A stretch of DNA of 64,000 nucleotides from Acidobacteriota bacterium (GCA_965205505.1 CBDBHB010000009.1:1984001-2048000), one strand, 5' to 3'; shown: positions 44,020 through 61,379, numbered from the stretch's first letter. Numbers and translations: made by a program. The notes: generated by a model from the letters alone, not told the origin.

Positions 44020-44053
44020 CAGGGTGCTAAGAAACTCCGCTAAGGAGCAAGCC

Positions 44054-45595
44054 GTGGACCCCAGCGACGGTGCGTCGGCGCCGCAGATCGACCGCGTCAT
44101 GCTCGCGGTCGTGCTGCTGGTCGTCGGCTCCACGTGCATCCCCCTGGGTCTCATGCCGGAGCGGGCGGGTGCCTTCGTCTCCGAGCTCTACGATGGTCTG
44201 ACGAGCAACTTCGGCTTCCTGTACCAGTGGTTTGCCGTCGGCGTGATCGGCTTCTTGGCGTGGCTGGCGTTCGGACGCTTCGGATCGGTGCGTCTGGGGG
44301 CCGAGCACGAGGAACCGGATTTTTCGACGTTCTCCTGGGCTGGCATGTTGTTTTGTGCCGGAACCGGAGCCGCGTTGCTGTCTTGGGGGGCGGTGGAATG
44401 GGTTGCCTATTACAACAACCCACCCTTCGGCGCAGAGCCTCGTTCCGCCGAGGCCCTCAGTTGGGCGACTGCCTATGGTCCGTTCCACTGGGGGGTGGTC
44501 GCGTGGTGTATCTACGCGTTGCCGACGGTGGCGATCGCCTATCCGTTCTACGTCAATCGGGTACCGCATCTATGCGCCAGCACGGCATGTTGCGGGCTGC
44601 TGGGGCCGGACGCGCATCGGAGCCTCTTCGGCCGATTGGTGAACCTCGCCGCCGTACTCGGAATCCTCGGCGGCGCCGGCACCTCGCTGGGCTTCATTGC
44701 CCCCTTGATCGCCGCGACCGTTGCCGAGCTCTTCGGCGTCGCCACCTTGTTCGCCCTGGAGGGTCTCGCGATGGCGATCTGCGTGGCGCTGTTCGGTGCC
44801 AGCGTGTACCTGGGCCTGGAGGCGGGGATCAAGCGGCTCAGCGATTTGAATGTGACGCTGTTCGGGCTTCTTCTGACGTACATCTTCGTCGTCGGGCCGA
44901 CATTGTTCATCCTCAAGCTATCGACCGAGACGCTGGGGTTTATGACGGCGAACTTCGTCCGCATGCTCACCTGGACGGATCCGGTCCGGGATGCCGGCTT
45001 CGTGGAGTCGTGGACCGTTTTCTACTGGGCTTGGTGGATCGCCTTCGCGCCGGTGGTGGGCACCTTCGTGACTCGTATCTCGCGCGGGCGTACGCTTCGT
45101 CAGGTGATTCTGGGGATGACCTGCCTGGGCAGCGCCGGCTGTTGGGTCTTCTTTTTTATTCTGGGCAACTACGCGCTCTTTTTGGAGATTGAGGGCCTCC
45201 TGCCGGTGAGCGACATCCTCGCCGAAGCGGGCATGAGCGTGGCGACGGCCAAGATCCTTGCTTCGCTTCCGGCAGGCACCGTGGCGCTGGCGACCATGGC
45301 CGTGGTGAGCATCGTGTCTGCCGCCACGAGCTATGACTCAGCGTCCTACACGATCGCTGCGACGGTGACCCAGGAGCTCGATGCGGCCGAGAACCCGGGT
45401 CGAGCGCACCGGTTGTTCTGGGCGCTCGTGCTCGGTACGTTGCCGCTGTTCATGCTGTTCGTCGGCGGCCTGCAGATCATACGGCTGGCGGCACTCCTGG
45501 CGTCGTTTCCGATCTTGTTCGCCGGCGTGGCGATGGCCGTGTCGCTGACGAAATCGCTCCGCGCCGACGAACGAGCACCGACGCCGCCGCGGTAG
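44054..45595 (+). CDS. BCCT family transporter
   Basis: SWAGMLFCAG, FHWG, GIKRLS, WTVFYWAWW and RISRGRT motifs; AAGGAG RBS. Confidence 0.93.
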   Translation: MDPSDGASAPQIDRVMLAVVLLVVGSTCIPLGLMPERAGAFVSELYDGLTSNFGFLYQWFAVGVIGFLAWLAFGRFGSVRLGAEHEEPDFSTFSWAGMLFCAGTGAALLSWGAVEWVAYYNNPPFGAEPRSAEALSWATAYGPFHWGVVAWCIYALPTVAIAYPFYVNRVPHLCASTACCGLLGPDAHRSLFGRLVNLAAVLGILGGAGTSLGFIAPLIAATVAELFGVATLFALEGLAMAICVALFGASVYLGLEAGIKRLSDLNVTLFGLLLTYIFVVGPTLFILKLSTETLGFMTANFVRMLTWTDPVRDAGFVESWTVFYWAWWIAFAPVVGTFVTRISRGRTLRQVILGMTCLGSAGCWVFFFILGNYALFLEIEGLLPVSDILAEAGMSVATAKILASLPAGTVALATMAVVSIVSAATSYDSASYTIAATVTQELDAAENPGRAHRLFWALVLGTLPLFMLFVGGLQIIRLAALLASFPILFAGVAMAVSLTKSLRADERAPTPPR

Positions 45596-45617: not shown

Positions 45618-46466
45618 TCAGAGCTCCATCGCTCGCGTCATGTCGAAGCCGCCATCGATCTTGATATTCTGCCGCACGATATAATCGTTCAGAGGCGACA
45701 CCAGGAACAGAATCAGGTTGGCAATGTCGAGCCCATCGGCGCGCCTCCCTCGTGGGATGCTCTCGGAGATCTGCCGTTCGACATCCCCGACGGAGGCTCC
45801 TTTTACGCTCGCGTACCATTCCAGCTCGTGCTCGCCGATCTGAGTAGCCACCCAGCCTGGCGTGATCGAGTTCACCAGAATGTGCTCCGGCGCGAATTCC
45901 TGGGCAACCGCCTCGGTCATCGACCACAGCGCGGCTTTGCTGGCAATGTAGGCGCCGTAGCCGGCGCCGCCGGTGAACGAAGTCACGACGTTGACGATTC
46001 TGCCGCCCCCGACCTTGCGCATCTCGGGTATCGCGGCGCGCATGGTGTAAAAGGGCCCCTTCGCGTTCACTGCGAAGGTCTTGTCCCATGCCGCCTCGGG
46101 AATCTCTAGAAACGGCCCGGTCCCCACTGTGGTGGCCGCGCAGTTCACCAGAATATCGAGTCGGCCGAACGTATCGACGGTTGCCCGAACGAGTTTCTCG
46201 ACGTCGTCGCGGCGCGTAAGGTCACAGCAAACGGCCAGGGCTCGGTCACCGATCGTTTCGACGAGGTCGTCGAGATGGGCCTTGGATCCGAGCGCCGAGT
46301 TGGCCTCCGGCGTGCGCTCGCCGAGGTCTTCGGCGTAGAGGTGGCAGATGTCGGTGACGACGACCGCTGCGCCTTCCTGCGCCAGCTTGAGAGCCGACGC
46401 CTCGCCCATGCCGCGCGCTCGCCCGCACCCCGTGATCAAGGCAACTTTGTCCTCAAGGATTCCCAT
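45618..46466 (-). CDS. SDR family oxidoreductase
   Basis: ITGCGRARGMG, GRLDILVN, YIASK and IDGG motifs. Confidence 0.9.
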   Translation of the reverse strand: MGILEDKVALITGCGRARGMGEASALKLAQEGAAVVVTDICHLYAEDLGERTPEANSALGSKAHLDDLVETIGDRALAVCCDLTRRDDVEKLVRATVDTFGRLDILVNCAATTVGTGPFLEIPEAAWDKTFAVNAKGPFYTMRAAIPEMRKVGGGRIVNVVTSFTGGAGYGAYIASKAALWSMTEAVAQEFAPEHILVNSITPGWVATQIGEHELEWYASVKGASVGDVERQISESIPRGRRADGLDIANLILFLVSPLNDYIVRQNIKIDGGFDMTRAMEL

Positions 46467-46887
46467 ATCGGTCTGGCCTCCAAGTCGTACAGCAGTGTGC
46501 TGTTGCTATTCTCGGTGCGACTCTGCTGGCAGGTCGCTTCGCCGGGAGACTCGGCTGAGGAAGCTACGGCTCGGTCGGCACGGGCCGTTTCAGTTGGACC
46601 TAGCGAACCAGCCGGGATTCTACTCGCATGGATGCGCGAGCAAAACTGGAAGGTTCACCAGGTAGCCTCAACGGTCACTGTTTGGACTCGACCCCGCCTA
46701 GTGCTCCTGATCATAAGTGCGGTGACGTTTGTGGCGCGCGCGACCGAGGCGAATTGTAGGAGCGGCGACGAGGGCGATGCTGGGTGTATCGTCGAGGCGC
46801 CGCGACGCCCAAGGTGGCCGGTCCCGCGGCCACCCGGAGGGCAGGGGCGGTCTCCCTGTACAGTACGTAGAACGTCGTTCGTGCCGC

Positions 46888-48582
46888 CTATACGCCCTCG
46901 GCCTTGCTGCAACGACGAGGATCGCCGCAGGCAGTCATCGTGCCCGAGCCCGATTCGAAGTGAATTCCTTCGAAGGAACCGTGGTAGAGACTCCAGGGAT
47001 TGATGACATCGAAGTCGATGCCCCGCTGCTCCACGGCCTCGCGGACATGCGCATCATAGTTCTTCTCGATCGTGATGCCGCGGTCGCCGACCGGTCCCCC
47101 GTAGCGCGGACGATTCACCGATTCCTCGATCGGCATCGCGAAGTCCATGATGTTGACGGCGTTCTGGAGCATGCACTGGGAGAGGCTCCGGCTCGGCGAC
47201 CCGCCGGCGAGAAAAGGTGCCCCGTCCTTGAACACGATCATGCCGCCGGGCCCCACGAGCCCGCGCTCGCCCGGACTGCCACCATAAATTCGCAACGAGC
47301 ACAGGTTGACGCCATTCACCCACAGACCGGTTTCGAAAGGAGCCTGGTTAGATGAGTGCACCAGGCAGGCGACGTTTCCTTGTTCGTCCGCCACGGTCAC
47401 GGCGCACGTGTCTTCGGGCAGGGCGCCGAACGACGTGTCTGACGCTAGCTGCCCGGTCTGCAGCTGCTCGAGTCGACGGCGCGCCAGCTCCTCCGGGTCG
47501 AGGTCGCTCGTATCCTGCCTGCGGTAATCGCCTTCGACGATCGTCAAGCTGCGGATCATCTGGTACATGGTCTCCGGCGATTCCGTCGGCGGGCCCTGCG
47601 CCGGGATATCCAGCAACTCCAGAACGTCCAGGGTCTCGGTGATCACCGGCAGGGAGTAGCCGTTGAAGGTGCGGTAGGCGCGCGGCAGCGCGCGAACCTC
47701 GAACCCCCGGTAGGTGCTCGAAGCCACTTCTGCGGTCGTCGCCTCGTAGCGCTCCATATCCTGGCGGGTGACGTTGCGGCCGCCTGCCTGGGAGATTCGG
47801 CAGAACTCCTCGGCAAAGTTGCCCCGGTAGAAGTATTCGTTACCTCGTTCGGCGAGCTGCTCGAGCGTATCCGCGGCCTCCACCTGGTAGAGCATCTCGC
47901 CCGGTTGAGGAATGGCACTGTTGGGCATGTAGATCCTCAGTCCCGCGTCGGAGCGGCCGATCTTCTCGGACTCCATGAAGATCTCTCCCCAGAGGAACGG
48001 ATGGGTCTCGAACCCCTCGCGAGCGTAACGGATGGCCGGGGCCATGAGCTCTTTCTTCGACTTCGTACCGAAACGCGAGAGTGATTCCTCGAAGCCGGCC
48101 CAGAACCCTGGCACACCGACTCCCCCCCATGTATCGGGAGTGCCGTCTGCTTCCTCGGCTCCAAGCGGTACATTGGCACTGCCGTCGACATACATCGTCT
48201 CGCCGCTCGCAGCTTCGTAGTACGTCAACGTCAAGTAGCCAGTAACACCCACCAGGTGCGGCTGGATGACGGTCTGCGTGATGGCGACGCAGAGCGCTGC
48301 GTCGCAGGCGTTGCCGCCGGACTTCAGGACATTGACGGCTTCGCGCGTGGCCAGCGGATGAGAGGTGATCGCCATGCCCGTCCTGCTCTGCGCGGGCGTC
48401 TTGCGACCGAACTGAGCTTCAGCGATGAGCTCCTTCCGCTTCTGGTCACCGATTTCGTATACGCCCTGCAGGGAGGCCGGATCCCGTCTGACGTTTGATT
48501 TCGAGAGACCAAACTCGCCGACTCCCGCTACGGCAGCGCCGGCGAACGCGTTCCTGAGAAAAGCTCTTCGATCGTGCTGCAT
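46888..48582 (-). CDS. Tat-exported gamma-glutamyltransferase family protein
   Basis: DRRAFL Tat motif; GGNACDAA, GVPG, PAIRYAREGF, and DT (nucleophile) followed by DEQGN. Confidence 0.85.
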   Translation of the reverse strand: MQHDRRAFLRNAFAGAAVAGVGEFGLSKSNVRRDPASLQGVYEIGDQKRKELIAEAQFGRKTPAQSRTGMAITSHPLATREAVNVLKSGGNACDAALCVAITQTVIQPHLVGVTGYLTLTYYEAASGETMYVDGSANVPLGAEEADGTPDTWGGVGVPGFWAGFEESLSRFGTKSKKELMAPAIRYAREGFETHPFLWGEIFMESEKIGRSDAGLRIYMPNSAIPQPGEMLYQVEAADTLEQLAERGNEYFYRGNFAEEFCRISQAGGRNVTRQDMERYEATTAEVASSTYRGFEVRALPRAYRTFNGYSLPVITETLDVLELLDIPAQGPPTESPETMYQMIRSLTIVEGDYRRQDTSDLDPEELARRRLEQLQTGQLASDTSFGALPEDTCAVTVADEQGNVACLVHSSNQAPFETGLWVNGVNLCSLRIYGGSPGERGLVGPGGMIVFKDGAPFLAGGSPSRSLSQCMLQNAVNIMDFAMPIEESVNRPRYGGPVGDRGITIEKNYDAHVREAVEQRGIDFDVINPWSLYHGSFEGIHFESGSGTMTACGDPRRCSKAEGV

Positions 48583-48748
48583 CAGCTTTATCCCTCCGGG
48601 CTGGAGATCCTCACTCCGATAGCGCTGATCGAGGTCGGTTGTCTCAGCGTCCCATCAGCATTTCAGGCGGTACTTCCTCTCAACGACTTGGAGAAAGCCC
48701 GCAGCCAATGCTGCACCGACCCCACCGAGCACGAGCGACAAGAACGTC

Positions 48749-48783
48749 TGAAGCTTGTGGCCGCGGGAGGCGAGATCCAACGG
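48749..48783 (-). repeat. Motif A copy (degenerate) upstream of the GGT gene
   Basis: TGAAGC...CGAGATCCAACGG; minus strand TTGGAT-N17-CAAGCT. Confidence 0.65.
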
Positions 48784-48836
48784 GTGGAACCTGACAGCGC
48801 TCCGGCGCGGTTCACGACTACGTGGACACCGACAGT

Positions 48837-50291
48837 CTATCGTCGCGCGTCCTCGCGTGAGGCGCCGAGTCGGGTCGCAAATTTCGTTTTGCGCCACCCC
48901 GAATCACCTACCGCGTTTCGAGCCCGTATACGACATTTGTATCGTGTATCCGCGGTGAGCTCGTCGAGGATCACGCCCTCGACGTTCGCATAGGCTCGCG
49001 CGACGGTGCTCCATTTATCGCCGCTCGGCTTGCATTGCACAGGGTGGAGCACCAGTGGCCTGTAACAGATGATCGTTGCGTATCGTGGTGGCGAAATGGG
49101 TCCGGATGCCAGGCGCGACGACGAGACGATGTTTGCCCATCGTGGAGGAGGAGCAACGCCGCAGACGGGCCGATTTCGCCGCCATCCTGCGGACAGATGG
49201 GCAGTTGCGGGCGATATCGGCGTTGCGCCTCGTCGACGATGCCCACTGCATCGCCTTCCTCGCCGCGCCTTGATCTCACCCGCAAATCCCATCTGCGATA
49301 TGCAACGATCATCTGTTACAGGCCACTGGTTCTTGCTGCTTTCGCGAGCCCAGCGTTCGAGAAGTTCGACGCGCCGCCGAAGGTCGCGACTGAGATCGCC
49401 GATCGATGTGATGTCGGTCAGGGTCATTGGTAGAGAGAACGCTGCCTTGTTGGTCTTCGGGTCCATCAGCTCGAGCAGGCCCGTGAGTGTGTGGCTTCCG
49501 GCTCCGCGGCGCAGGCCATCTTGACGCGTATAGTTCGAGTTTACGGCCTCGACACGGCTCTCTCTCGTGTTCGCCTCGTCTGCACGGTTCTCGAACGAGA
49601 CCCCGGCGGCGCCGCCGTAGTCGGCGACATTCACCACGACGATGTAGTCGGCGATCTGGCGTGTGCGCACCAAGCCGAAGGCGGGCGAGTCGCGTAGTGC
49701 CTTGGCAACCTGCTGCTGGACGACCGCCAGCTCGCCTCGCACCTGCATCAACGTTGACTCCATCGAGGCATTCCGGTCGGTGACGGTCGTGTCCATCGGA
49801 CCGACGAAGACGCGCGGCGCGTTGATACGCTCCGCGAGATCATCCGGCGGGTCTGCTACCTCCCGGAGCTGCACGATCTCCTTGCTCATGTCGCGGCCCG
49901 CCTGATGCGCGAGGATCGTCTGCTCCCAGCAGGTCTCGTAGTCCCCGACGCCGAAGGAGGCGATGCCGGCCATGAAGTAGACATCGGGCACCCCGGGCTG
50001 GCGCTCGTCCGCGGCCAGGAACGCCTCAAGGGCGTCCTTCTCGTCGCCCATCTGGCCGTGCGCCAGGCCCTTCAAGAAGTGTGCCGTCCACAGCGTATCG
50101 TCCGCCTTCAACACATCTTCGAGCAGGTCGAGCGCGTACGCCGGCTCACCCTGATCGATGTACTCTTGGGCCCGCTTGAGTTGCTGCTGTAGCTCTCGTC
50201 CGTCCCCGTCCTGGCGTGCCTGTGCGGGCGCAGCGACGACTAGCGCAACCAGCAGGACGCGGAACAAGGGGATATGGCCACGGTTCCGCAT
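48837..50291 (-). CDS. TPR protein (paralog of 33305-34273) extended through a palindromic element into an FN3-like fragment
   Basis: Homology to the paralog ends at ERWARE (~49343). The frame stays open through 49051-49330 and into WSTV...TRYKCRIRARNAVGDSGW. Confidence 0.7.
   Translation of the reverse strand: MRNRGHIPLFRVLLVALVVAAPAQARQDGDGRELQQQLKRAQEYIDQGEPAYALDLLEDVLKADDTLWTAHFLKGLAHGQMGDEKDALEAFLAADERQPGVPDVYFMAGIASFGVGDYETCWEQTILAHQAGRDMSKEIVQLREVADPPDDLAERINAPRVFVGPMDTTVTDRNASMESTLMQVRGELAVVQQQVAKALRDSPAFGLVRTRQIADYIVVVNVADYGGAAGVSFENRADEANTRESRVEAVNSNYTRQDGLRRGAGSHTLTGLLELMDPKTNKAAFSLPMTLTDITSIGDLSRDLRRRVELLERWARESSKNQWPVTDDRCISQMGFAGEIKARRGRRCSGHRRRGATPISPATAHLSAGWRRNRPVCGVAPPPRWANIVSSSRLASGPISPPRYATIICYRPLVLHPVQCKPSGDKWSTVARAYANVEGVILDELTADTRYKCRIRARNAVGDSGWRKTKFATRLGASREDARR
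49051..49330. mobile_element. 280-bp palindromic MITE-like element
   Basis: 35-bp terminal IR ACCAGTGGCCTGTAACAGATGATCGTTGCRTATCG with 1 mismatch; interior is also imperfectly self-complementary. Confidence 0.85.
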
Positions 50292-50429
50292 CGTCGAGCC
50301 CCTTTGTCTGCGGGCAACCCTTCCCGGGGCCCCCAACGGCGACTAGCCAGAGAACCCTCTCACGATGCCTGCCACAACATCAACGGGACAAGGGTGGTCG
50401 GTGTTCTCGGGAGCACGCAACGCGATTCG

Positions 50430-50519
50430 GTAGCCGAAATCACCCTGAGTTGGAATCGGATCATCCAGGAAGAACGGGCTCGGCTCGCGGGACTCGGCTG
50501 AAGACGCTACAGATCCAAT
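50430..50519 (+). repeat. Motif B core plus peptide tail, followed by a shortened motif A
   Basis: GTAGCCGAAATCACCCTGAGTTGGAATCGGAT closely matches 56044-56075; followed by TGAAG...AGATCCAA. Confidence 0.7.
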
Positions 50520-50532
50520 AGCACGAGCTGCT

Positions 50533-51375
50533 TCAGCTCGTCGGCTTGGTGAACTTCAGCAGGTAGCGATCGGTGTCGTAGCGGCCGTCATAGGTGCCCT
50601 CCTCGAAGCCGGAGGTGCTACGGTCGTCCGCTGGGTTTGCCAGCATGGCGGAGCGCCCCGACAGCTCAAAGCCCCCGGCGGTGAACTCGTCGATTACGGT
50701 CTGCTCGTTGAGGCGATGCGTCTCGGGGTCCCATCCCGGCTTGTCGCTGGCTGCCTCGACGATGCCCACGACTCCACCGGGCTTTAGGGCTCGGTGCATC
50801 TCGGCCACCGCCTCGGGGCGCGAGGGGCCCGGGACGGTCCCGAGGTCGTGGTAGTTGCGCACCGCGACCATCACGTCGACGCTGCCCGATTTCATATCCG
50901 TAAGCTTGTCGATTAGCTCGACGTTGCTCAGACCATGGTCCTGGATACGCTGCTTCAAGCCTTCCCTGGTGGAGTAGTCGGTGTCTAGACCAAAGAAACC
51001 CAGGACACTCAACACGTGCCCGTCAGCACCCATCAGGCGTGACATCAAGTGAGTGTTGTAACCCTCGGCAGGCCATAGATCCGCAACCGTCATGCCCGGC
51101 TGCATGCCCAGCCACTGGTAGACATCGATCGCTTTGCGGTCACTATCCTCGGTGCGCTCGGCATCGGGGCGCGCAGGGTCATCGAGAACGGACCGATCTA
51201 GCTGCGTCACGATCGAATCTTGTGGCAACGCCGAGGCAGTCTCTTCCGAGGCTATTGGCTCGGTTTCCGGGCTACAGGCGATCATCGTTGCCGCCACTCC
51301 CACGAGCAGCGAGAACACGTGCGTATCTCCGACTACGCCGCGACGGTTACCCTTGAACAGATTCGCTTGTCTCAC
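50533..51375 (-). CDS. Class I SAM-dependent methyltransferase-like exported protein
   Basis: PARPDAER..D..RK, QPGMTVADL, RNYHD, ALKPGG and LANPADD motifs; AAAGGAG RBS. Confidence 0.8.
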   Translation of the reverse strand: MRQANLFKGNRRGVVGDTHVFSLLVGVAATMIACSPETEPIASEETASALPQDSIVTQLDRSVLDDPARPDAERTEDSDRKAIDVYQWLGMQPGMTVADLWPAEGYNTHLMSRLMGADGHVLSVLGFFGLDTDYSTREGLKQRIQDHGLSNVELIDKLTDMKSGSVDVMVAVRNYHDLGTVPGPSRPEAVAEMHRALKPGGVVGIVEAASDKPGWDPETHRLNEQTVIDEFTAGGFELSGRSAMLANPADDRSTSGFEEGTYDGRYDTDRYLLKFTKPTS

Positions 51376-51445
51376 CGTTGATCTCCTTTTCACCGGGGAA
51401 GGTCACTAACTTCGACTCTGTTGAGTCAAGGGCGATACATCACCA

Positions 51446-51509
51446 TGGCGCCACCACAGGGATGGGTGAGCGCGTGAAGCCTATCGCCGGAGCGTGCGAG
51501 ATCCAACGG
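51446..51509 (-). repeat. Motif A copy with adjacent TGGCGCCACCA core, upstream of the methyltransferase gene
   Basis: Minus strand TTGGAT-N17-TAGGCT; GGTGAGCGCGTGAAGC shared with 58415-58430. Confidence 0.8.
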
Positions 51510-51891
51510 GGCCCCGGAGCAGAATACCTGTGCGCTGACCGTACGGACGATGTCAGGAAATCGTCGGAATACCCGTGGCGACTCGGACCTCAGCCCTGCT
51601 TGCCGAGTAGCATGGGCGTCTACGCGTGCCGCCCCCTCGGGCGACTGATGGAGGTCGAATGAAGGGATTCAGCCGCCTGATCACGATCGCGTCGACTTCG
51701 CCTCGGATGGCAAGGAGACGAAGCGTGTGGCTCGCGCGATGATGCGAATGGTGGCGGCCATCAACGACGAGTTGTTGCCGCCCAGCCAAGGGGGGAGGGC
51801 CGGTGCTCGTGAAATCGGCGTCGAGCTCATCTAGGATCACCGGTCGTGGCTCCCATCAATCTCGACCCAGCATCAGAGGGGCCCTTCATAG

Positions 51892-51914
51892 GTGTCATAG
51901 CTGTCGTATGACAC
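51892..51914. promoter_or_regulatory. Candidate operator (8-7-8 inverted repeat)
   Basis: GTGTCATA-N7-TATGACAC ends 22 nt before the transporter start codon. Confidence 0.5.
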
Positions 51915-51936
51915 AAAACAGGTCAAGGAGCCGAGC

Positions 51937-53361
51937 ATGACGGCTGCCAAGCAGGTCATCGAGCCGGATATGACTCCCGTCCAAAAGTTAGGTGAGGCGA
52001 TCGCCGACCGGGTAGAGCGGTGGATGCCGAGCCCGTTCCTCTTCGCGATCCTCCTGACCTACGTCGCCGCGGGCGCCGCATTTATCTCGGAAGGGTCGGC
52101 AGTGACCGAGATCGCCCTGTCATGGTACGGAGGCTTCTGGGCCCTACTGCAGTTCGCGATGCAGATGGTGATCATCCTCGTGACGGCCAATGTGGTGGCG
52201 TATCACCCACGGGTGAGGGGTGTGATCCTAAGCCTCGTTCGGATTCCCAAGAATGGTCGGCAGGCCGTCGTTCTGGTAGGCGTGGGATCGATGCTGACCG
52301 GATGGATCTCCTGGGGTTTGGGGCTCATCTTCGGAGGGATCATGGCCCGCGAGATGGGCAAGCACGCCGCCCGAAAGGGGATGGCTGCGCACTATCCGTT
52401 GTTGGCCGTGGCGGGCTACATGGGGATGAGCCTCACGTGGGGATGGGGGCTGTCCAGTTCCGCCGGTCTCCTTCAAGCGACCGAGGGAAACGCGCTGATG
52501 CAGATGGGCTTCGTCGATCGCGTGATCCCCTCGACGGAGTGGGTGTTCCACCGCTATCCGCTGATTCTCACAGCGCTGTCGATCATCTTCTGCTCGATCA
52601 TGCTGTATCTGCTGAGCCCGCCCGATCAGAACTGCAGGCCGATCGGGTATTACGTGGACGACGACGGTGGGGATGCTCAACCGGAGAGGACCCCGGCCGC
52701 GCAAAAGGAAACCGCCGGCGCCGCCAAGCCTGCGATAGCCGACAGGATCGACAACAGCAGGATCCTCGGGGGCGTCCTCGCGTTAACCGGTGTCGTGCTG
52801 TTTCTGAGGCAGTTCTTCACGCAAGGCCTCGGGGCGCTGGACCTGAATAACTTCAACTTCGGGTTCCTGATGATCGGGCTCTTGCTCTACGCCAGTCCCA
52901 CCAAGTACCTGCGCGAGTTCTACGACGCCGTTCAGGGGAGCGCGGGAGTCGTCCTGCTCTTCCCGTTCTACGCTGGCATCATCGGAATCATGACCGGGAC
53001 GGGGCTGGTCGATACGATGACCGCCTCGCTGCTCTCGATCGCCACACCGGAGAACTTCGCGGTGACCGCCTGGATCACCGGTGGGGTCCTCAATATCTTC
53101 GTGCCGTCAGCCGGAGGTGAGTGGGCGATCATCGGCGGCCCCATGATGGTGGCCGGTGCCGAGTTGGGTATCCCTCACGGCCAAACGATCGCCGCCTACG
53201 CGGTCGGGGACGCACACACGAACCTCCTCAACCCGTTTTGGGCGATCCCGCTGCTGGCCATCACCGGCCTCCGTGCTCGGGACATGTTCGGCTACGCGAT
53301 CACCATGATGATCTTGCTCGTCCCATTTCTGGCGATCGTGCTCTACGTTCTGCCCTACTGA
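51937..53361 (+). CDS. atoE: Short-chain fatty acid transporter (AtoE family)
   Basis: RWMPSPFLFAILLT, LLQFAMQM, FPFYAGI, FVPSAGGEW and PFWAIPLL motifs. Confidence 0.85.
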   Translation: MTAAKQVIEPDMTPVQKLGEAIADRVERWMPSPFLFAILLTYVAAGAAFISEGSAVTEIALSWYGGFWALLQFAMQMVIILVTANVVAYHPRVRGVILSLVRIPKNGRQAVVLVGVGSMLTGWISWGLGLIFGGIMAREMGKHAARKGMAAHYPLLAVAGYMGMSLTWGWGLSSSAGLLQATEGNALMQMGFVDRVIPSTEWVFHRYPLILTALSIIFCSIMLYLLSPPDQNCRPIGYYVDDDGGDAQPERTPAAQKETAGAAKPAIADRIDNSRILGGVLALTGVVLFLRQFFTQGLGALDLNNFNFGFLMIGLLLYASPTKYLREFYDAVQGSAGVVLLFPFYAGIIGIMTGTGLVDTMTASLLSIATPENFAVTAWITGGVLNIFVPSAGGEWAIIGGPMMVAGAELGIPHGQTIAAYAVGDAHTNLLNPFWAIPLLAITGLRARDMFGYAITMMILLVPFLAIVLYVLPY

Positions 53362-53595
53362 GATCCGCGCGTAGGAGGCACCATGTGTTACATGGCGGCA
53401 TTCGTCGACCAGGCGTACTCGTCGTGACGGCTTGGGGCATCCCGGCGGCGGCGCTTGCTCAGACTGGAATCTACGAGCTCGTCTCCAATTGGCCGAATGT
53501 TCCCTCCGGAATGTTCTTCGGGTCAGGTGAGGGTTGGCCAGATCGGAACCTCTTCATTCTAAAGAAGTACCGAGGGAGGGACGACTGAACGATAG

Positions 53596-55896
<2,301 letters not shown>

Positions 55897-55967
55897 TCAT
55901 TGCGGTCGCCTAGACATGTTCTACACACGTGTGTAGCTTGCCTAGGAGTCCAATGCGGCTGGACGGG

Positions 55968-56184
55968 GCCTATCATCAGAGTCACGAGATCCAACGGAGA
56001 GGGCAGGGGATACCCTAGGGCGCAGCACCCCAGAAGGGAGGAAGTAGCCCCAATCACCCCGAGTTGGAACCGGATTCAGGAAGAACTCAGGAGCCTGGAT
56101 CGGTTCTCCGCCTGATTCGGAGGCTGCCAGTGGGGGGTGGGCCAGCGCTTGAAGCCTATTGTTAGCGCCGGCACGAACCAACGG
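55968..56184. repeat. Motif A - motif B - motif A cluster
   Basis: CGAGATCCAACGGAGAGGGCAGGG (55985-56008) is identical to 58447-58470; GTAGCCCCAAT at 56044; TGAAGCCTAT at 56150. Confidence 0.8.
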
Positions 56185-56259
56185 TAGGCGTAGCGGAGTG
56201 GGCCTCCCCCGATTTCCCGGACACCTTTGGAAGTCCGATAATGGGCTCGGAGGTGAAGC

Positions 56260-56553
56260 ATGGGGTCACGACGGCGGTACAGTCGCGAGTTCAAGATTGA
56301 GGCAGTGAGGATGGTGACGCAGCTGGGCCATCCGGTGTCTGAGGTGGCCCGGGATCTGGGTGTTGGCCGCGGCATGTTGACCAAGTGGCGCAAACAGCTC
56401 CAGGAGCAGGGGGTCACGGCGTTTCCGGGCGCGGGGAAGATGCCCGACCAGGACCTGGACGGGCAACAGCTACGGCGGGACGTGCGGCGAGTACGGCAGG
56501 AGCGCGACATTCTAAAAAAAGCGTTGGCGATCTTCTCGGAACGCCCGCGATGA
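56260..56553 (+). CDS. IS3 transposase OrfA
   Basis: RRRYSREFKIEAV...VARDLGV HTH and ERDILKKA. Confidence 0.9.
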   Translation: MGSRRRYSREFKIEAVRMVTQLGHPVSEVARDLGVGRGMLTKWRKQLQEQGVTAFPGAGKMPDQDLDGQQLRRDVRRVRQERDILKKALAIFSERPR

Positions 56554-57545
56554 AGTACCCGATCATCAAGCAACTGTCCGGCAAGTTCCCGGTGCGGCGG
56601 TTGTGCAAGATGCTCGAGGTGTCTCACGGCGGTTACTACGAGTGGCGAGGAAGGGGGCCGAGCCCGAGAGCGCGAGAAGATCGCCGTCTACGTGTGCAGA
56701 TCAGAGCTGCATTCCGAGAGAGCCGCGACCGTTACGGAAGTCCGCGCATCCACAAGCAACTTCGGCAACGAGGGATCCGCTGCTCTCGCAAGCGGGTAGC
56801 TCGGCTGATGCGCCAGGAAGGACTTCGAGCTCGCCAACCCCGTCGGTTCCGGGTGACAACACGGCCCACACCTGGCCGGTCAGCGGCGCCCAACGTGCTG
56901 GCACGGCGCTTCACGGTGGATGCCGTGGACAGCGTCTGGGTGGGCGACCTGACATACCTGTGGACGCAGGAAGGATGGCTATACCTGGCCGTGCTGATGG
57001 ATCTGTGCTCGCGACGGATCATCGGCTGGGCGGTGAGCGAGACGATGACGGACGATTTGACGCTGGCGGTCCTGGATCAGGCCTTGGAGCAACGCCGTCC
57101 CGGTTCCGGAGTGCTCCATCACAGCGACCGCGACAGCCAGTACAGCAGCGACGATTACCTAGACAAGCTGCGTGACCGTGGCTTCACCATCAGCATGAGC
57201 AGGAAAGGAGACTGCTGGGATAACGCGCCGATGGAGAGTTTCTTCTCTACCCTGAAGTTCCAACTCGGTGGCTGCTTCAGTTCCCGGGCGGCGGCCCGAG
57301 CCGAGTTGTTCCACTACATCGAAGTGTTCTACAACCGGGCTCGCATGCACACCTGGATCGGAGACCAGAGTCCGGCTCAGTTCGAGGCGGCAATGCGGCG
57401 GCCAGGCCAGAGCGGCCAATCAGCTGTGGAAGCTGACGCGCCCGTGGAAATCGACTCCCGATTTCCACCGTCGCTTGGACAACGCTCCGCGTTGCCAACA
57501 GCTCCCACAGCCGCTAATACGACTACGACAATGGATCTTAACTAA
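56550..57545 (+). CDS. IS3 transposase OrfB (DDE)
   Basis: YGSPRI, WVGDLTY, HHSDR and CWDNAPMESFF motifs; ATGA overlap with orfA. Confidence 0.92.
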   Translation: MKYPIIKQLSGKFPVRRLCKMLEVSHGGYYEWRGRGPSPRAREDRRLRVQIRAAFRESRDRYGSPRIHKQLRQRGIRCSRKRVARLMRQEGLRARQPRRFRVTTRPTPGRSAAPNVLARRFTVDAVDSVWVGDLTYLWTQEGWLYLAVLMDLCSRRIIGWAVSETMTDDLTLAVLDQALEQRRPGSGVLHHSDRDSQYSSDDYLDKLRDRGFTISMSRKGDCWDNAPMESFFSTLKFQLGGCFSSRAAARAELFHYIEVFYNRARMHTWIGDQSPAQFEAAMRRPGQSGQSAVEADAPVEIDSRFPPSLGQRSALPTAPTAANTTTTMDLN

Positions 57546-57686
57546 GTGTCCGGGAAAGCGGGGCAAGGTCAAAGTGGCGACGTGCCCGTTTTCGCGTCAG
57601 GAACACCGATGACCTAGTCTTGTGATGTTGTCGTCTCGTTTGCCCGTCCAGCCAAGTTCGAGGGAGGCCACACTGTGAGGAGCCTG

Positions 57687-58184
57687 ATGCCAAAACGCCT
57701 GACCGTGTTGCAGGTAGCGCTGATCCTGATCGGCTCGGCCGCAAGCGCTCACGCCCAAACCGAGTCGCGGGATCCGTTGATCGGCACCTGGACACTCAAC
57801 GCCGAGAAGTCGGTCTTTGGCGGCAACGCGCCTCCGCCGACCAGCCTGACGAGGACGTTCGACTACACCAAAGACGGGCTGATGCTCGTGACGCTCGAGA
57901 CCGTGAACGCCCGTGGCCGCTCATTTCTGCACTGGTACTTGGGCTTCGACGGCAAGGAGTACCCGGAGTATTCAAGGGAATCCGGGGCGAAGCCGACATA
58001 CTGGCTCTCGGCTAAGGTGATCGATCCCTACACGAAGGAGGTGATAGATCGCGTTGCGGACCAAGACGAGCCATTCCTGATGATCACCTTTGCCGTCTCG
58101 AAAGACGGTGAGACCATGACGATGACGTACAAGGACATGGATGGTACGCCCGGCAACGTTGTCGTGTACGACAAGGTGTTCTAG
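57687..58184 (+). CDS. Secreted hypothetical protein (beta-barrel-like)
   Basis: Signal peptide; DPLIGTWTLNAEKS, FDGKEYP and VVVYDK motifs. Confidence 0.7.
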   Translation: MPKRLTVLQVALILIGSAASAHAQTESRDPLIGTWTLNAEKSVFGGNAPPPTSLTRTFDYTKDGLMLVTLETVNARGRSFLHWYLGFDGKEYPEYSRESGAKPTYWLSAKVIDPYTKEVIDRVADQDEPFLMITFAVSKDGETMTMTYKDMDGTPGNVVVYDKVF

Positions 58185-58190
58185 GTAGCC

Positions 58191-58391
58191 TCAATGCGGT
58201 CCCGCGCCATGGACGGCTGCGATGTGTGGATGGTTCAGGGCTGCGGCAGCGCGAGCCTCCTGCTCGAAACGAGCGAGGCGCTCGGGGTCAGAGGCGAACT
58301 CGGCGGGCAGCACCTTGATGGCCACCTTGCGGCCCAGGCGCGTGTCCTGCGCCAGGTACACCTCGCCCATGCCGCCAGCACCGAGCTGCTC
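58191..58391 (-). pseudogene. N-terminal fragment of a Ser/Thr protein kinase
   Basis: [27 protein letters not shown]...[17 protein letters not shown] followed by a stop. Confidence 0.9.
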
Positions 58392-58393
58392 GG

Positions 58394-58571
58394 TGGCGCT
58401 ACCAGGGAGGGTTAGGTGAGCGCGTGAAGCGTATCGTCAGAGACGGCGAGATCCAACGGAGAGGGCAGGGAAGGCGCAGGTGGGGCGTTGCGAAAAAGAG
58501 GTAGTAGCCCCAATGGCGAGGATGTTGAACACCACATGCAGTACGTGGCGCGCCTCGCGAGGGTCGGCTGA
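58394..58571. repeat. Inverted core - motif A - motif B unit
   Basis: TGGCGCTACCA (58394), motif A (58425-58470), then GTAGCCCCAAT (58504) with a tail. Confidence 0.8.
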
Positions 58572-58576
58572 GCGTC

Positions 58577-58769
58577 CTACGGGTCCGTCGGCACGAGCCG
58601 GTTTAGCTCCTCGAACCAGTTGGTGACCAGCATCACGTTCCCGACGCCGCTCAGCGATTGGGTGGCGGCTTCCAGCATCACGAAACGCTGCCCGTCCCCC
58701 GTCACATCGAAGTCCGAGGCACCGTTGGCGTATCCGTTCAAACCGCCCAGGAAGTCCCCCTCTGACAAA
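58577..58769 (-). pseudogene. C-terminal fragment of a kinase/PD40 beta-propeller protein
   Basis: FDVTGDGQRFVML...VTNWFEELNRLVP* is the typical C-terminus of these kinases. Confidence 0.75.
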
Positions 58770-58788
58770 GTAGCCCCAAGGGGATTGA
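58770..58788 (-). repeat. tRNA 3'-end-like att core (motif B)
   Basis: Minus strand reads AATCCCCTTGGGGCTAC, resembling a T-arm/acceptor 3' end (tRNA-Glu-like). Confidence 0.6.
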
Positions 58789-58930
58789 CCGGTTGCAATG
58801 CCGATTGGCGGTGGTGAGTAGCGGGTGGTTCGAGGCGGGTACTAGGGGCGCTTGACGCGCGTGGCGTCCACCTCGCCTCCGTCGCTCGGTTGCGTTGTAC
58901 CGCCGCTCGATCGTCGCTACGCTCGGTCGC

Positions 58931-60100
58931 ATGCAGGAACGCACAGGTATCGCCACGCCGATCGGCCGGTCGAAGCCCTTGGACCGAGGCGGGCGTTGCT
59001 GCGGCCGTGATCAGGCGCGGGGCAACGAGTTGATCCTGGGACTGCCTTCGGGAACAGTTTCGTTGCACCGCGCGCACGACGAGTGGGCGCGCGCGTTCGA
59101 ACACGAGGCACAGCGCATCGAGTCGGCGATCGGTCCGTACATCCTCGATGTCCGCCACATCGGGAGTACGGCGATCAAGGGCGTGCCCGCCAAGCCCATT
59201 CTCGACCGCCTACGCTACGTGATGGAGGCCCACGTGATGCCGACGCTGGGCGAGGTGCCCGTGGACCGGCTGACGGCGAACCGCATCCGGCGGTGGCATG
59301 AAGCCTTGGCCGATAAACCGGCCCACGTGCGGACCTCGAAGCACAGCCGGAAGCGCCAGGTACGCCACGCCAAGACCGCTGATGAGAAGCGCGCCCGCAA
59401 GGTCACCGCGAATCGGTCGCTGACGGCGCTGAAGGCGGCGCTACACCGGCGATGGCTCGGCAACCGCCGTGTGGTCGGGCCGTGGTCGGAGGTAGCGCCG
59501 TTCCGCGACGTGGACCGAAGCAGGGACCGCTACCTCGACACCGATGAAGCGCAGCGGCTCGTGAACGCGTGTGAGCCGGACTTTCGCGCCCTGGTGCAGG
59601 GAGCGGTCTACACGGGGCAGCGATATGGCGAGCTGGCGCGGCTGCGCGTCGCGGACGTGAACCTCGACGCCTGCGCCGTCGCGGTGCGCGAATCGAAGAG
59701 TGGAAAGCCGCGCTACGTGTTCCTGAACGACGAGGCGCTGGCGTTCTTCGAGGCGCAGGCTGCCGGCTGCGGTGGAGACGAGACGCTGTTCCGGCGAGCC
59801 GACGGCGAGCCCTGGGGCCATGGGCACCAACACAAGCGCATGAAGGCCGCCTGCGAGCGGGCCGGGATCGACCCACCCATCGGGTTCCACGGGTTTCGGC
59901 ACGGCTACGCCTCGTCCTATCTCATGAACGGTGGCGGTCTGCCGGACCTGGCAAAGCAGTTGGGGCACACGAGCACCCGGATGGTGGAAGAACACTACGG
60001 CCATCTCGCCGACGCCTGGCGCGCGGAGCGGGCGCGGCAGTTCGCGCCGACCCTAGGAGTGAAGCCGGGCAAGGTGCGGAGGATGCGAGGGCGCAGGTAA
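58931..60100 (+). CDS. Chimeric ORF: GrpB-family N-terminus fused at ~59206 to a tyrosine integrase lacking its N-terminus
   Basis: LGLPSGTV...HIGSTAIKGVPAKPILD is followed by an integrase body with TGQRYGE, HGFRH, LGH and HYGH. Confidence 0.85.
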   Translation: MQERTGIATPIGRSKPLDRGGRCCGRDQARGNELILGLPSGTVSLHRAHDEWARAFEHEAQRIESAIGPYILDVRHIGSTAIKGVPAKPILDRLRYVMEAHVMPTLGEVPVDRLTANRIRRWHEALADKPAHVRTSKHSRKRQVRHAKTADEKRARKVTANRSLTALKAALHRRWLGNRRVVGPWSEVAPFRDVDRSRDRYLDTDEAQRLVNACEPDFRALVQGAVYTGQRYGELARLRVADVNLDACAVAVRESKSGKPRYVFLNDEALAFFEAQAAGCGGDETLFRRADGEPWGHGHQHKRMKAACERAGIDPPIGFHGFRHGYASSYLMNGGGLPDLAKQLGHTSTRMVEEHYGHLADAWRAERARQFAPTLGVKPGKVRRMRGRR

Positions 60101-60991: not shown

Positions 60992-61189
60992 ATGAAGCAG
61001 GTCGACCGAGTTTTCCTGAGCATCAACACAGGGCCAACGCCCCGCGACGCGGTGCCGGTGGTCGCCACCGAGGACCCGGCGATCGTCGATGCTGCGCTCT
61101 TGGCCGTCTGCCGGCGGCTCGGACGCGGGCTCGACGACCCGGACCCTGACCCGCCGCCCGGCGAGGAGGTGCGTCGTGGGCGCGTCTGA
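60992..61189 (+). CDS. Small hypothetical protein
   Basis: GGAGG RBS; overlaps the excisionase-like ORF. Confidence 0.5.
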   Translation: MKQVDRVFLSINTGPTPRDAVPVVATEDPAIVDAALLAVCRRLGRGLDDPDPDPPPGEEVRRGRV

Positions 61190-61379
61190 CGGACGTGCCG
61201 TCGGCCAGGTTGCTGTTGGGCTCCGCGACGGCGCGAAACTGCTCGGGCTGGGAACGAACGCGCTCTACACGGCGTTGCGCGAGGGTCACGGCCCGAGGAC
61301 TTTCCGCGTGGGTCGTCGCCACCTTGTGCGTGTCGCAGAGCTTGAGCGCTGGGCTCGCGAGCTGGAGGCACAGGGGTAG
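61176..61379 (+). CDS. Excisionase/AlpA-like HTH protein
   Basis: GAKLLGLGTNALY...GPRTFRVGRRHLVRVAELERW; GAGGAGG RBS. Confidence 0.75.
   Translation: MGASDGRAVGQVAVGLRDGAKLLGLGTNALYTALREGHGPRTFRVGRRHLVRVAELERWARELEAQG

Follow-up and report, generated by a model that had tools for sequence, protein, structure and literature searches.

Closest described systems

Tandem islands bounded by repeats have been described at the ssrA gene of Dehalococcoides, where the islands carry many 20-base repeats and 15 of them lack an integration module (PMC3146451). In streptococci, integrative and conjugative elements (ICEs), integrative and mobilizable elements (IMEs) and cis-mobilizable elements (CIMEs) accrete at the 3' end of their target genes, as set out in a review (PMC5704250). 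Here we describe six short direct repeats in a 64,000-nucleotide stretch of an Acidobacteriota genome (GCA_965205505.1, CBDBHB010000009.1:1984001-2048000), the whole of which is called the window. The repeats resemble the 3' end of tRNA-Glu, and the region which they mark is probably a decayed accretion array of small blocks bounded by attachment (att) sites, made by a tyrosine integrase family specific for tRNA-Glu(UUC). The window is C9:1984001-2048000 of the genome (G000; 5,980,488 bases), coordinates without a prefix are window positions, and G000 together with the four relatives compared (G001-G004) makes up five genomes of one genus.

In Dehalococcoides, as at the present locus, direct repeats of the 3' end of a small-RNA gene lie downstream of it and bound tandem islands in a highly variable region; islands without an integrase are read there as cis-mobilizable remnants, and the sequence adjacent to the repeat is conserved too (PMC3146451). 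There, the enzyme is a serine recombinase, the repeat has 20 bases and the repeats lie up to 100 kb from ssrA, whereas the recombinase here is of the tyrosine type, the core spans about 13 bases (or 45 in one relative's intact island), blocks go down to 0.3-0.9 kb, a pseudo-tRNA remnant closes the array at a distance of 64 kb from the live tRNA gene, and att-type units also occur at scattered loci without a tRNA. The streptococcal succession of integration, decay to an att-flanked element without an integrase and new integration into the resident att site, giving tandem elements, would apply here as well; however, mobility in streptococci was shown experimentally (PMC5704250), while movement at this locus is only suggested by sequence and the sole integrase of the family in G000 is truncated.

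With integrons, the locus shares co-oriented, short and often one-gene blocks (for example, GrpB in 893 bases in G004 and a GNAT acetyltransferase in about 0.9 kb in G003) and a conserved recombination site beside a tyrosine recombinase. However, the integrase is not IntI, and the site is a tRNA-end core with direct arms that, by eye, form no imperfect palindrome and no folded attC with inverted RYYYAAC/GTTRRRY ends. Because the blocks carry a conserved upstream region of their own (module A, below), they are not promoterless. To our knowledge, site arms that double as the ends of a large kinase family are not a feature of CIMEs. In some other mobile elements attP lies within a gene, as in the SSV-type split integrase and the integration-dependent immunity of some mycobacteriophages. 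An orphan coding tail that starts at the att core is a likeness to these, whereas no N-terminal partner or complete gene was found in the searches reported below, and in G004 it is the 5' end of the integrase that faces the att site.

Six co-oriented cores

An earlier note on this DNA, made from the sequence alone, had listed six copies of a short core motif on the plus strand, and all of them were confirmed. The motif GTAGCCNNAA matches at 46662, 50430, 56044, 58185, 58504 and 58770, always on the plus strand and within a span of about 12.2 kb. In dinucleotide-preserving shuffles of the window, the mean number of matches was 0.70 and the maximum 3, and none of 100 shuffles reached six. The narrower form GTAGCC[CTG][CA]AA has 48 matches genome-wide on both strands, which predicts about 0.1 in 12.2 kb; by both measures the core frequency is above background. 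Eight of these 48 copies fall within C9:2030662-2106677, and all eight are on the plus strand. A T-loop-like TTGRM follows 4-12 bases after five of the six window cores (core 58185 is unmatched) and was seen in 0 of 100 shuffles, though this pattern was picked post hoc, after the data had been seen. The same arrangement is present in contigs of four public sequencing runs, which bridge cores 50430, 58185, 58504 and 58770; because these four are bridged identically, the cores are not an assembly artefact of G000.

The tRNA-Glu target

ARAGORN predicted 55 tRNA genes in G000, and only two of them end in GGGCTACC, namely tRNA-Glu(UUC) and the tRNA-Glu(CUC) on C7. The tRNA-Glu(UUC) gene (C9 c[2106676-2106751]) is on the minus strand, ends in CCCGTTGGGGCTACC and lies 64 kb to the right of core 58770. 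Since its 3' end is therefore at the lower coordinate, the window is on its 3' side, and the gene stands in direct repeat orientation to the cores, as it does to all eight plus-strand motif copies up to C9:2106677. The matching tRNA which the earlier note proposed to search for was thus found, with a fitting position and orientation.

As the note had stated, core 58770 extends to GTAGCCCCAAGGGGATT, in which 16 of 17 bases equal the reverse complement of both tRNA-Glu 3' ends. Among the copies with right arm B (below), C9:1220912 matches the tRNA-Glu(UUC) end over 14 of 14 bases and C9:2264964 over 13 of 13, counted from the last bases of the tRNA gene. The common "type I" 3' flank of the kinase family discussed below was also compared with the 55 tRNA ends, and none of them fits.

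Junction types in the relatives

When the window copies were aligned with related copies elsewhere in G000, three modules emerged, arranged from left to right as A, a variable purine-rich spacer, the core, B and C. Arm identities were taken from pairwise blastn, the global alignment being uninformative with free end gaps that inflate identity. Module B is rare in G000 (five full and two partial copies), A and C are common, and the homology of B begins at the core: in an order-wide DNA search, 11 of 20 non-self matches start at query positions 17-21, with the core at 21. Some cores are followed by a different arm, variant 2, which was searched for within G000-G004; relatives of it are present in G003 and G004.

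For the relatives, the tRNA-Glu gene with its flank was searched in G001-G004 and the loci were then read. Flank, core and tRNA are contiguous in G000 and in G001 (G001:C145, query 66-272, E 5.4e-19). In G002, the same flank meets B and then C at the core (G002:C22:8300-8411, query 96-207, 80% identity, E 1.3e-19; B-profile E 5.1e-17). In G003, A, spacer and core lead into tRNA-Glu (A-profile match at L051:11578-11652), and the combination A-core-B is found in the window (58504), at C9:2264964, in G003 and in G004. These four junctions represent the attB, attL, attR and attP types expected of site-specific recombination at a single core, with A-core-B as the attP or tandem-junction type.

The G003 locus holds a co-oriented series that runs to the tRNA gene, with cores at L051 2932 and 6390, a variant-2 arm with a diverged core at 3837-3922 and tRNA-Glu at 11685. 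The two cores and the variant-2 arm lie at most 8.8 kb from tRNA-Glu, and an A copy stands at the right end of every block; the blocks carry the GNAT acetyltransferase, an FAD oxidoreductase and, in a mixed block, two IS3 copies. In G004 (C7), tRNA-Glu is occupied by a classical island of 22.3 kb, whose distal end, 22.3 kb downstream of the gene, is a 45-base copy of the tRNA end that forms a 100% identical direct repeat. Next to this distal repeat, some 70 bases into the island, begins a tyrosine integrase of 450 aa, which is followed by a DnaB/AAA_25 protein.

The comparison of empty sites in relatives, proposed in the earlier note, gave both occupied and empty sites with breakpoints at the core. 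The genes of a short-chain dehydrogenase (SDR) and a gamma-glutamyltranspeptidase (GGT) are 33 bases apart in G004 and 378 in the window, and the about 345 extra bases hold, along with core 46662, a fragment of module C and a repeat of 152 bases; the G004 spacing represents the empty site for core 46662. At the junction with core 58770, G004 (C15) shares 96.7% identity with the window and G002 (C25) 95%, and the complete GrpB of G004 is the block of 893 bases between that core and a core-B-C junction. The genes of the window blocks (GGT, methyltransferase, short-chain fatty acid (SCFA) transporter, KatG and a 169-aa open reading frame (ORF), ORF169) lie on different contigs or tens of kb apart in G002-G004, with the methyltransferase near the tRNA-Glu region in G002 and G003.

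An integrase of the tRNA-Glu island family beside core 58770

A 5'-truncated tyrosine integrase lies at 59201-60100 on the plus strand, with about 150 N-terminal residues missing (Phage_integrase E 7.8e-29; phrog_1 E 1.1e-43, profile positions 190-452 of 611). The remnant is 52% identical to residues 151-448 of the G004 island integrase (155/299, E 1e-99), is the best match of that integrase in G000, and begins 430 bases to the right of core 58770. Relative to this core, it occupies the same position as the G004 island integrase does to its repeat. It is not of the integron type, as TIGR02249 gives 59.7 bits against a cut-off of 265 and PRK15417 39.6 against 435.

The earlier note had invoked integrases whose attP overlaps their own 3' end. 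This does not hold in the intact G004 island: because the integrase gene starts beside the att site and points away from it, its 3' end is not at attP. In the window, the remnant is fused in frame to a GrpB N-terminal fragment (59057-59205, plus strand; Pfam GrpB at residues 55-117 of a 401-aa frame), while no integrase adjoins the G004 counterpart of core 58770. The G004 arrangement suggests that, in G000, an element with an integrase had its place at the second of the two cores around GrpB, and that a later deletion may have joined GrpB to the integrase interior. One public-run contig (X18) tracks the window to about 59211 (59203-59211) and then diverges rightward, which hints at a strain whose GrpB is uninterrupted by the integrase remnant.

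Other recombinases were also observed in G000. Four tyrosine recombinases in 423-aa frames have identical scores (C9:1754492, C8:549409, C9:917424 and C9:332384), as do two in 460-aa frames (C7:156490 and C9:165451), and three serine recombinases in 614-aa frames have identical C-terminal sequence; these sets suggest other active or recently active mobile elements in the genome. From G000:C4:33613 onward, a kinase-family 3' end is followed about 50 bases on by the tRNA-3'-end-like GCGGGTTCAAATCTCGTCGGCCCCGCC, which resembles tRNA-Asp, with a tyrosine recombinase 4 kb off, and this site may belong to a second att system.

Proposed history of the array

In the reading that we favour, the motif would be the core of the att site at which a tyrosine integrase specific for the tRNA-Glu(UUC) 3' end acts. 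Strand exchange would take place within about 13 bases, GTAGCCCCAACGG on the window plus strand, which in the tRNA correspond to the 3' acceptor strand with the discriminator and to the first part of the T-stem. By accretion, in which one element after another enters at the tRNA end or at an att copy of an earlier element, the cores would come to lie head to tail in one orientation. Decay would have followed: deletions would have ended at cores or close to them, an IS3 element and a small dispersed repeat would have come in, 603 bases would have been duplicated, and the integrase would have lost its N-terminus. The outcome would be the window at 46.6-58.8 kb with its five small blocks and six cores, the end of the array being the pseudo-tRNA remnant at 58770-58792 by the dead integrase.

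This reading stands on the tRNA match, the four junction types in the relatives, the kinship of the integrases and the empty site in G004. We infer from these that each window core came from recombinase action and not from the copying of an older junction; deletions at the cores would likewise have been recombinase-mediated, and the array is presumably immobile now in G000. The earlier note spoke of scars of many successive integrations by a recombinase family that targets a Glu-like tRNA and also uses secondary sites inside genes. The tRNA, the recombination at cores in relatives, an integrase of the tRNA-Glu island family by 58770 and the cores at broken gene fragments support this in part, while "many" is inseparable from fewer integrations together with duplication or rearrangement.

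Several points weigh against this history. The window cores match the 13-base tRNA end at only 8-12 of 13 bases (by eye), core 58185 has no arms, and the A match beside the G003 tRNA is weak (E 0.0037, with 11-base exact blocks). The DNA between the window and the tRNA gene holds core genes, such as gltB and sarcosine oxidase; one continuous pile of islands from the window to the tRNA is therefore ruled out, and the array is not simply the distal part of such a pile. Some synteny breaks are free of cores, for example that which separates katG from the SCFA-transporter gene. G000 lacks an intact integrase of this family, and no circular or excised form was seen in the public runs, of which only assembled contigs were used, in which rare excision would not show. 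Arms A and C occur beyond att sites as well (about 60 and 44 genome matches), since a large family of kinase paralogs has them as its conserved ends, and tandem junctions of that family without core or B occur at C8:344522 and C9:1404840. Finally, isolated A-core-B units lie in unrelated intergenic DNA at C9:2264964 and C9:2790496, and these are unlike leftovers of simple integration and excision.

Kinase-family flanks and dispersed repeats

Since A and C are shared with the kinase family, some A-core-B units could have spread by gene duplication, and duplication of kinase-family flanks is the main rival to integration, although the two are not exclusive. Module A, left of the core, is the upstream (5') region of the family, and module C, right of B, is the reverse complement of the last 14 codons of the family plus the 3' flank (NWFDELKRLVPTDP* plus flank). 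Core and B would then be a conserved intergenic module of tandem kinase/TolB-like genes that ordinary duplication of segments, together with gene conversion and deletion, had spread through the genome; a single ancient event at most would account for the likeness to tRNA-Glu, and the cluster in the window would be a graveyard of family fragments. This would fit the about 60 nhmmer matches of A and the 44 blastn matches of C, of which 33 run across the stop codon and many are orphan fragments with varied cut points. It would also fit the translated 3' ends of the family, as 12 of 20 are truncated fragments with stops upstream, and the kinase 5' ends, which are 92-96% identical in DNA. Moreover, three of the six cores in the window have A and C on either side or one of the two beside them, and the common 3' flank of other family members looks, by eye, like a diverged B without a core.

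We nevertheless consider duplication alone unlikely. It leaves the joins at the exact core unexplained, both that of the tRNA-Glu flank to B in G002 and that of A to the tRNA body in G003, and 13 shared bases do not suffice for homologous recombination. The blocks between cores in G003 and G004 carry unrelated genes (GNAT acetyltransferase, FAD oxidoreductase, GrpB), B is rare although A and C are common, and a related integrase lies beside core 58770.

The Ser/Thr-kinase/PD40 (TolB-like) family itself is very large, its 5' region and its last 14 codons with the 3' flank having 80-96% DNA identity, in contrast to divergent middles. Family 3' ends that are orphaned and 5'-truncated at different points are scattered over the genome by the dozen, some right after unrelated genes, such as the methyltransferase at 50533. 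In the window, pieces of the family were found at 58197-58415(-), 58577-58769(-), 46540-46600, 50500-50545, 51457-51510 and 56123-56192.

The isolated units at C9:2264964 and C9:2790496 could also be read in another way, in which A-spacer-core-B (about 170-230 bases) is a non-autonomous element, similar to miniature inverted-repeat transposable elements (MITEs) and moved by a transposase, with the cores either as its termini or as favoured target sites. Other small dispersed repeats abound in the genome (the 152-base and 278-base families), and TGGCGCTACC at the kinase-adjacent edge of A is, by eye, a 9/10 inverted match of the core. However, the copies have no common outer boundaries, as some consist of A only, of B only or of B with C; no target-site duplications were noticed, though no formal test was made; the inverted match is missing from copies that do not adjoin kinases; and the tRNA and flank junctions at the core are left unexplained. 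We regard such an element as very improbable.

As for the left edge of A by kinases (58395-58404 in the window), TGGCGCTACC corresponds, as reverse complement, to the bases immediately upstream of the kinase ATG, and the inverted match there may be fortuitous or may mark a second half-site. For B, a conserved hairpin (CCACG...CGTGG) was considered and dropped, as by eye it is not kept in the G002 copy.

The orphan peptide tails

Peptide tails downstream of the cores were translated in the earlier note, and the translations are correct as quoted; for the 58504 tail a frameshift had been assumed, and it reads SPNGEDVEHHMQYVARLARVG* in the +2 frame without any. The tails had been called recombinase-like, which is not supported by the sequence comparison. 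Against the C-termini of 35 tyrosine-recombinase (PF00589) matches in G000, the real scores of the tails were reached by 187, 126, 51 and 153 of 200 shuffles, and against three serine recombinases (PF00239) in G000 by 60, 13, 178 and 121 of 200; the tails score no better than shuffled tails, and none beats the shuffles at the 5% level.

The sequence that encodes the endings ARLAGLG* and ARLARVG* runs antisense to the conserved flank which follows the stop codon of the kinase genes. A tail formed by read-through extension of the minus-strand kinase past its TAG was rejected, as the frame is open in the window copy but has TGA in others, and the spacer length varies.

The variant-1 tail has the pattern SPNGxDxEHHAEYVARLARxx* in the +2 frame, and its substitutions look like those of a coding sequence. 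In 9 of 14 aligned copies, differences among B copies fall into the three codon phases as 17/41/24 over 68 positions (permutation p = 0.025), the count leaving out five partial or diverged rows (C8_500948, C9_2101195, L027, L023 and L019). Between C9:2264964 and the G002 copy there are 5 differences in the 33-base tail core, all of them in that phase and all synonymous, and the tail stop at one and the same aligned position varies between TAG, TGA and TAA. By eye, the antisense frame that shares the wobble positions has TGA in several copies.

These data would suit a split gene with an exchangeable tail, in which the variant-1 tail is the true C-terminus of a gene that runs across the att core and is complete in one recombination state only, for instance in a circular element or once excision has taken place; the tails in the chromosome would then be 3' ends displaced from this gene or awaiting it. 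A precedent of a kind exists in the Dehalococcoides ssrA islands, where an att repeat inside an integrase gene is reported (PMC3146451). Nevertheless, the frame upstream of the tails exceeds 100 codons at none of 11 sites in G000 and has a plausible start at none, and in G002 a stop stands directly before the core. The spacer left of the core varies in length and sequence, and the tails are unlike recombinase C-termini. The tail pattern was found in 4 of 401 sampled genomes of the phylum, all of one genus, and in two metagenome contigs, as an orphan every time. A search of a database of 5.8 billion proteins for a longer protein with the tail (75-2000 residues) gave 14 candidates, none at E<=10, which is weak evidence. 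The phase statistic is also soft, since it rests on a small number of copies that are related to one another. A split gene is very unlikely in our view, although variant 1 keeps its coding-like substitution pattern.

A wider proposal joins several of these elements. A-spacer-core-B (about 170 bases) might be the recombination site of an undescribed cassette system anchored at tRNA-Glu and served by a tyrosine integrase of a non-integron type, by which single genes with leader A and trailer B (often with a kinase-family 3' end) would be captured, stacked and shuffled. Such a system would have helped to spread and break up the kinase/TolB-like family, and the B tail would be an exchangeable C-terminus assembled in one recombination state. 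Taken as a whole, we hold this to be quite unlikely.

Layout of the window

The genes named here were assigned by Pfam/NCBIfam matches. To the left of the array lie a BCCT transporter (44024-45595, plus strand) and the SDR (45618-46466, minus strand). An orphan degenerate module C, i.e. a kinase/TolB-like 3' end, follows at 46540-46600 (minus strand; entry C9:2030571-), within the insertion of about 345 bases without counterpart in G004. Core 1 (GTAGCCTCAACGG) has a short arm (46662-46690, plus strand) like that upstream of the ORF169 locus (C9:2090426 and G004:C2). The arm is truncated by a MITE-like dispersed repeat of 152 bases (46698-46849), which has 36 other megablast matches in the genome at 82-98% identity and related copies also in other genera of the order. 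GGT (46888-48582) and a TPR protein with a 499-aa ORF (48837-50336) come next, both on the minus strand. Inside the TPR ORF frame, at 49046-49330, there is a repeat of about 278 bases, of which the genome contains far more than 50 copies, full or partial, and which is also abundant in G002-G004.

Core 2 (GTAGCCGAAATCA) is followed by a variant-2 arm with the tail VAEITLSWNRIIQEERARLAGLG* and then by module C, which overlaps the methyltransferase 3' end (50430-50545, plus strand; bridged by run contig X15). The methyltransferase (50533-51393, minus strand), the SCFA transporter (51937-53361, plus strand) and the catalase-peroxidase KatG (53599-55896, plus strand) fill the next block. Public-run contigs have joints inside katG that stem from katG genes of other organisms and are uninformative for the array.

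At 55968-56115 (plus strand), an A arm, a purine-rich spacer, core 3 (GTAGCCCCAATCA) and a variant-2 arm form a junction of putative attP type (A-profile E 1.5e-06). The block between cores 3 and 4 contains an IS3-family insertion sequence (56199-57571, plus strand; Pfam HTH_Tnp_1 and rve), of which eight further copies of at least 1,326 bases with at least 99.4% identity exist in the genome. ORF169 (57675-58184, plus strand) lies inside a recent duplicate of 603 bases (57582-58184, plus strand), 99.2% identical to the ORF169 locus at C9:2090499-2091102; the duplicate stops precisely with the stop codon and abuts core 4. Core 4 (GTAGCCTCAA; 58185-58194, plus strand) is bare, with no recognisable arms, and is bridged by run contig X20.

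Two cores sit at the broken ends of gene fragments, as the earlier note had observed. Core 58185 is placed between the 603-base duplicate and the N-terminal fragment of a Ser/Thr kinase paralog (58197-58415, minus strand; Pfam Pkinase E 5.8e-08), which has no start codon, is broken on its 3' side and is 92-96% identical to its paralogs, the homology spanning 58201-58395. At 58395-58573 (plus strand), an A arm (58395-58473), a spacer, core 5 (GTAGCCCCAATGG) and a B arm with the 58504 tail form the second putative attP-type junction (A-profile E 1.6e-20, B-profile E 4.3e-23). The other fragment is a kinase/TolB-like C-terminal piece ending in NWFEELNRLVPTDP* (58577-58769, minus strand) and, by paralog comparison, broken at core 6: in the frame 58580-58861(-), paralog homology starts from residue 31-33, about nt 58769, abutting core 58770. 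Core 6 with the tRNA T-arm-like remnant GTAGCCCCAAGGGGATTGACCGG (58770-58792, plus strand; the 16/17 match to tRNA-Glu) would be an attB-like pseudo-tRNA-Glu end.

No integration or transfer genes are present in the core-bounded segments, that is, 46662-50430 (GGT, TPR), 50430-56044 (methyltransferase, SCFA transporter, KatG), 56044-58185 (ORF169, IS3), 58185-58504 and 58504-58770. An Rfam scan of 44-64 kb at E<=1 gave only one chance miRNA match. ARAGORN called an 83-base tRNA-Val(GAC) at 61152-61234, which is probably false because the anticodon is at position 37 and Rfam has no tRNA there at E<=1. Elsewhere in the genome, a tRNA-Sec gene is present (G000:C9:2545440-2545537), and the organism therefore probably uses selenocysteine. 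The lineage is little studied and may be marine, although this is no more than a lead: the public runs with most of the stretch bear coded organism names, and sponge and marine metagenomes contain small shares only.

Meaning for the genus

Islands piled at tRNA and transfer-messenger RNA (tmRNA) genes are a known route of bacterial gene gain and reshuffling, and the array is a fine-grained variant of such accretion. Distinctive are its very small, often one-gene blocks and its detachment from the live tRNA. The site arms, too, stand apart, being common to the ends of a very large kinase family, with one arm that carries a coding signature but no gene. An active site would offer a way to study how single genes, among them katG, transporters and kinases, are moved from locus to locus in this genus; with an inactive one, the array would serve as a worked example for the reading of att scars in a decayed region.

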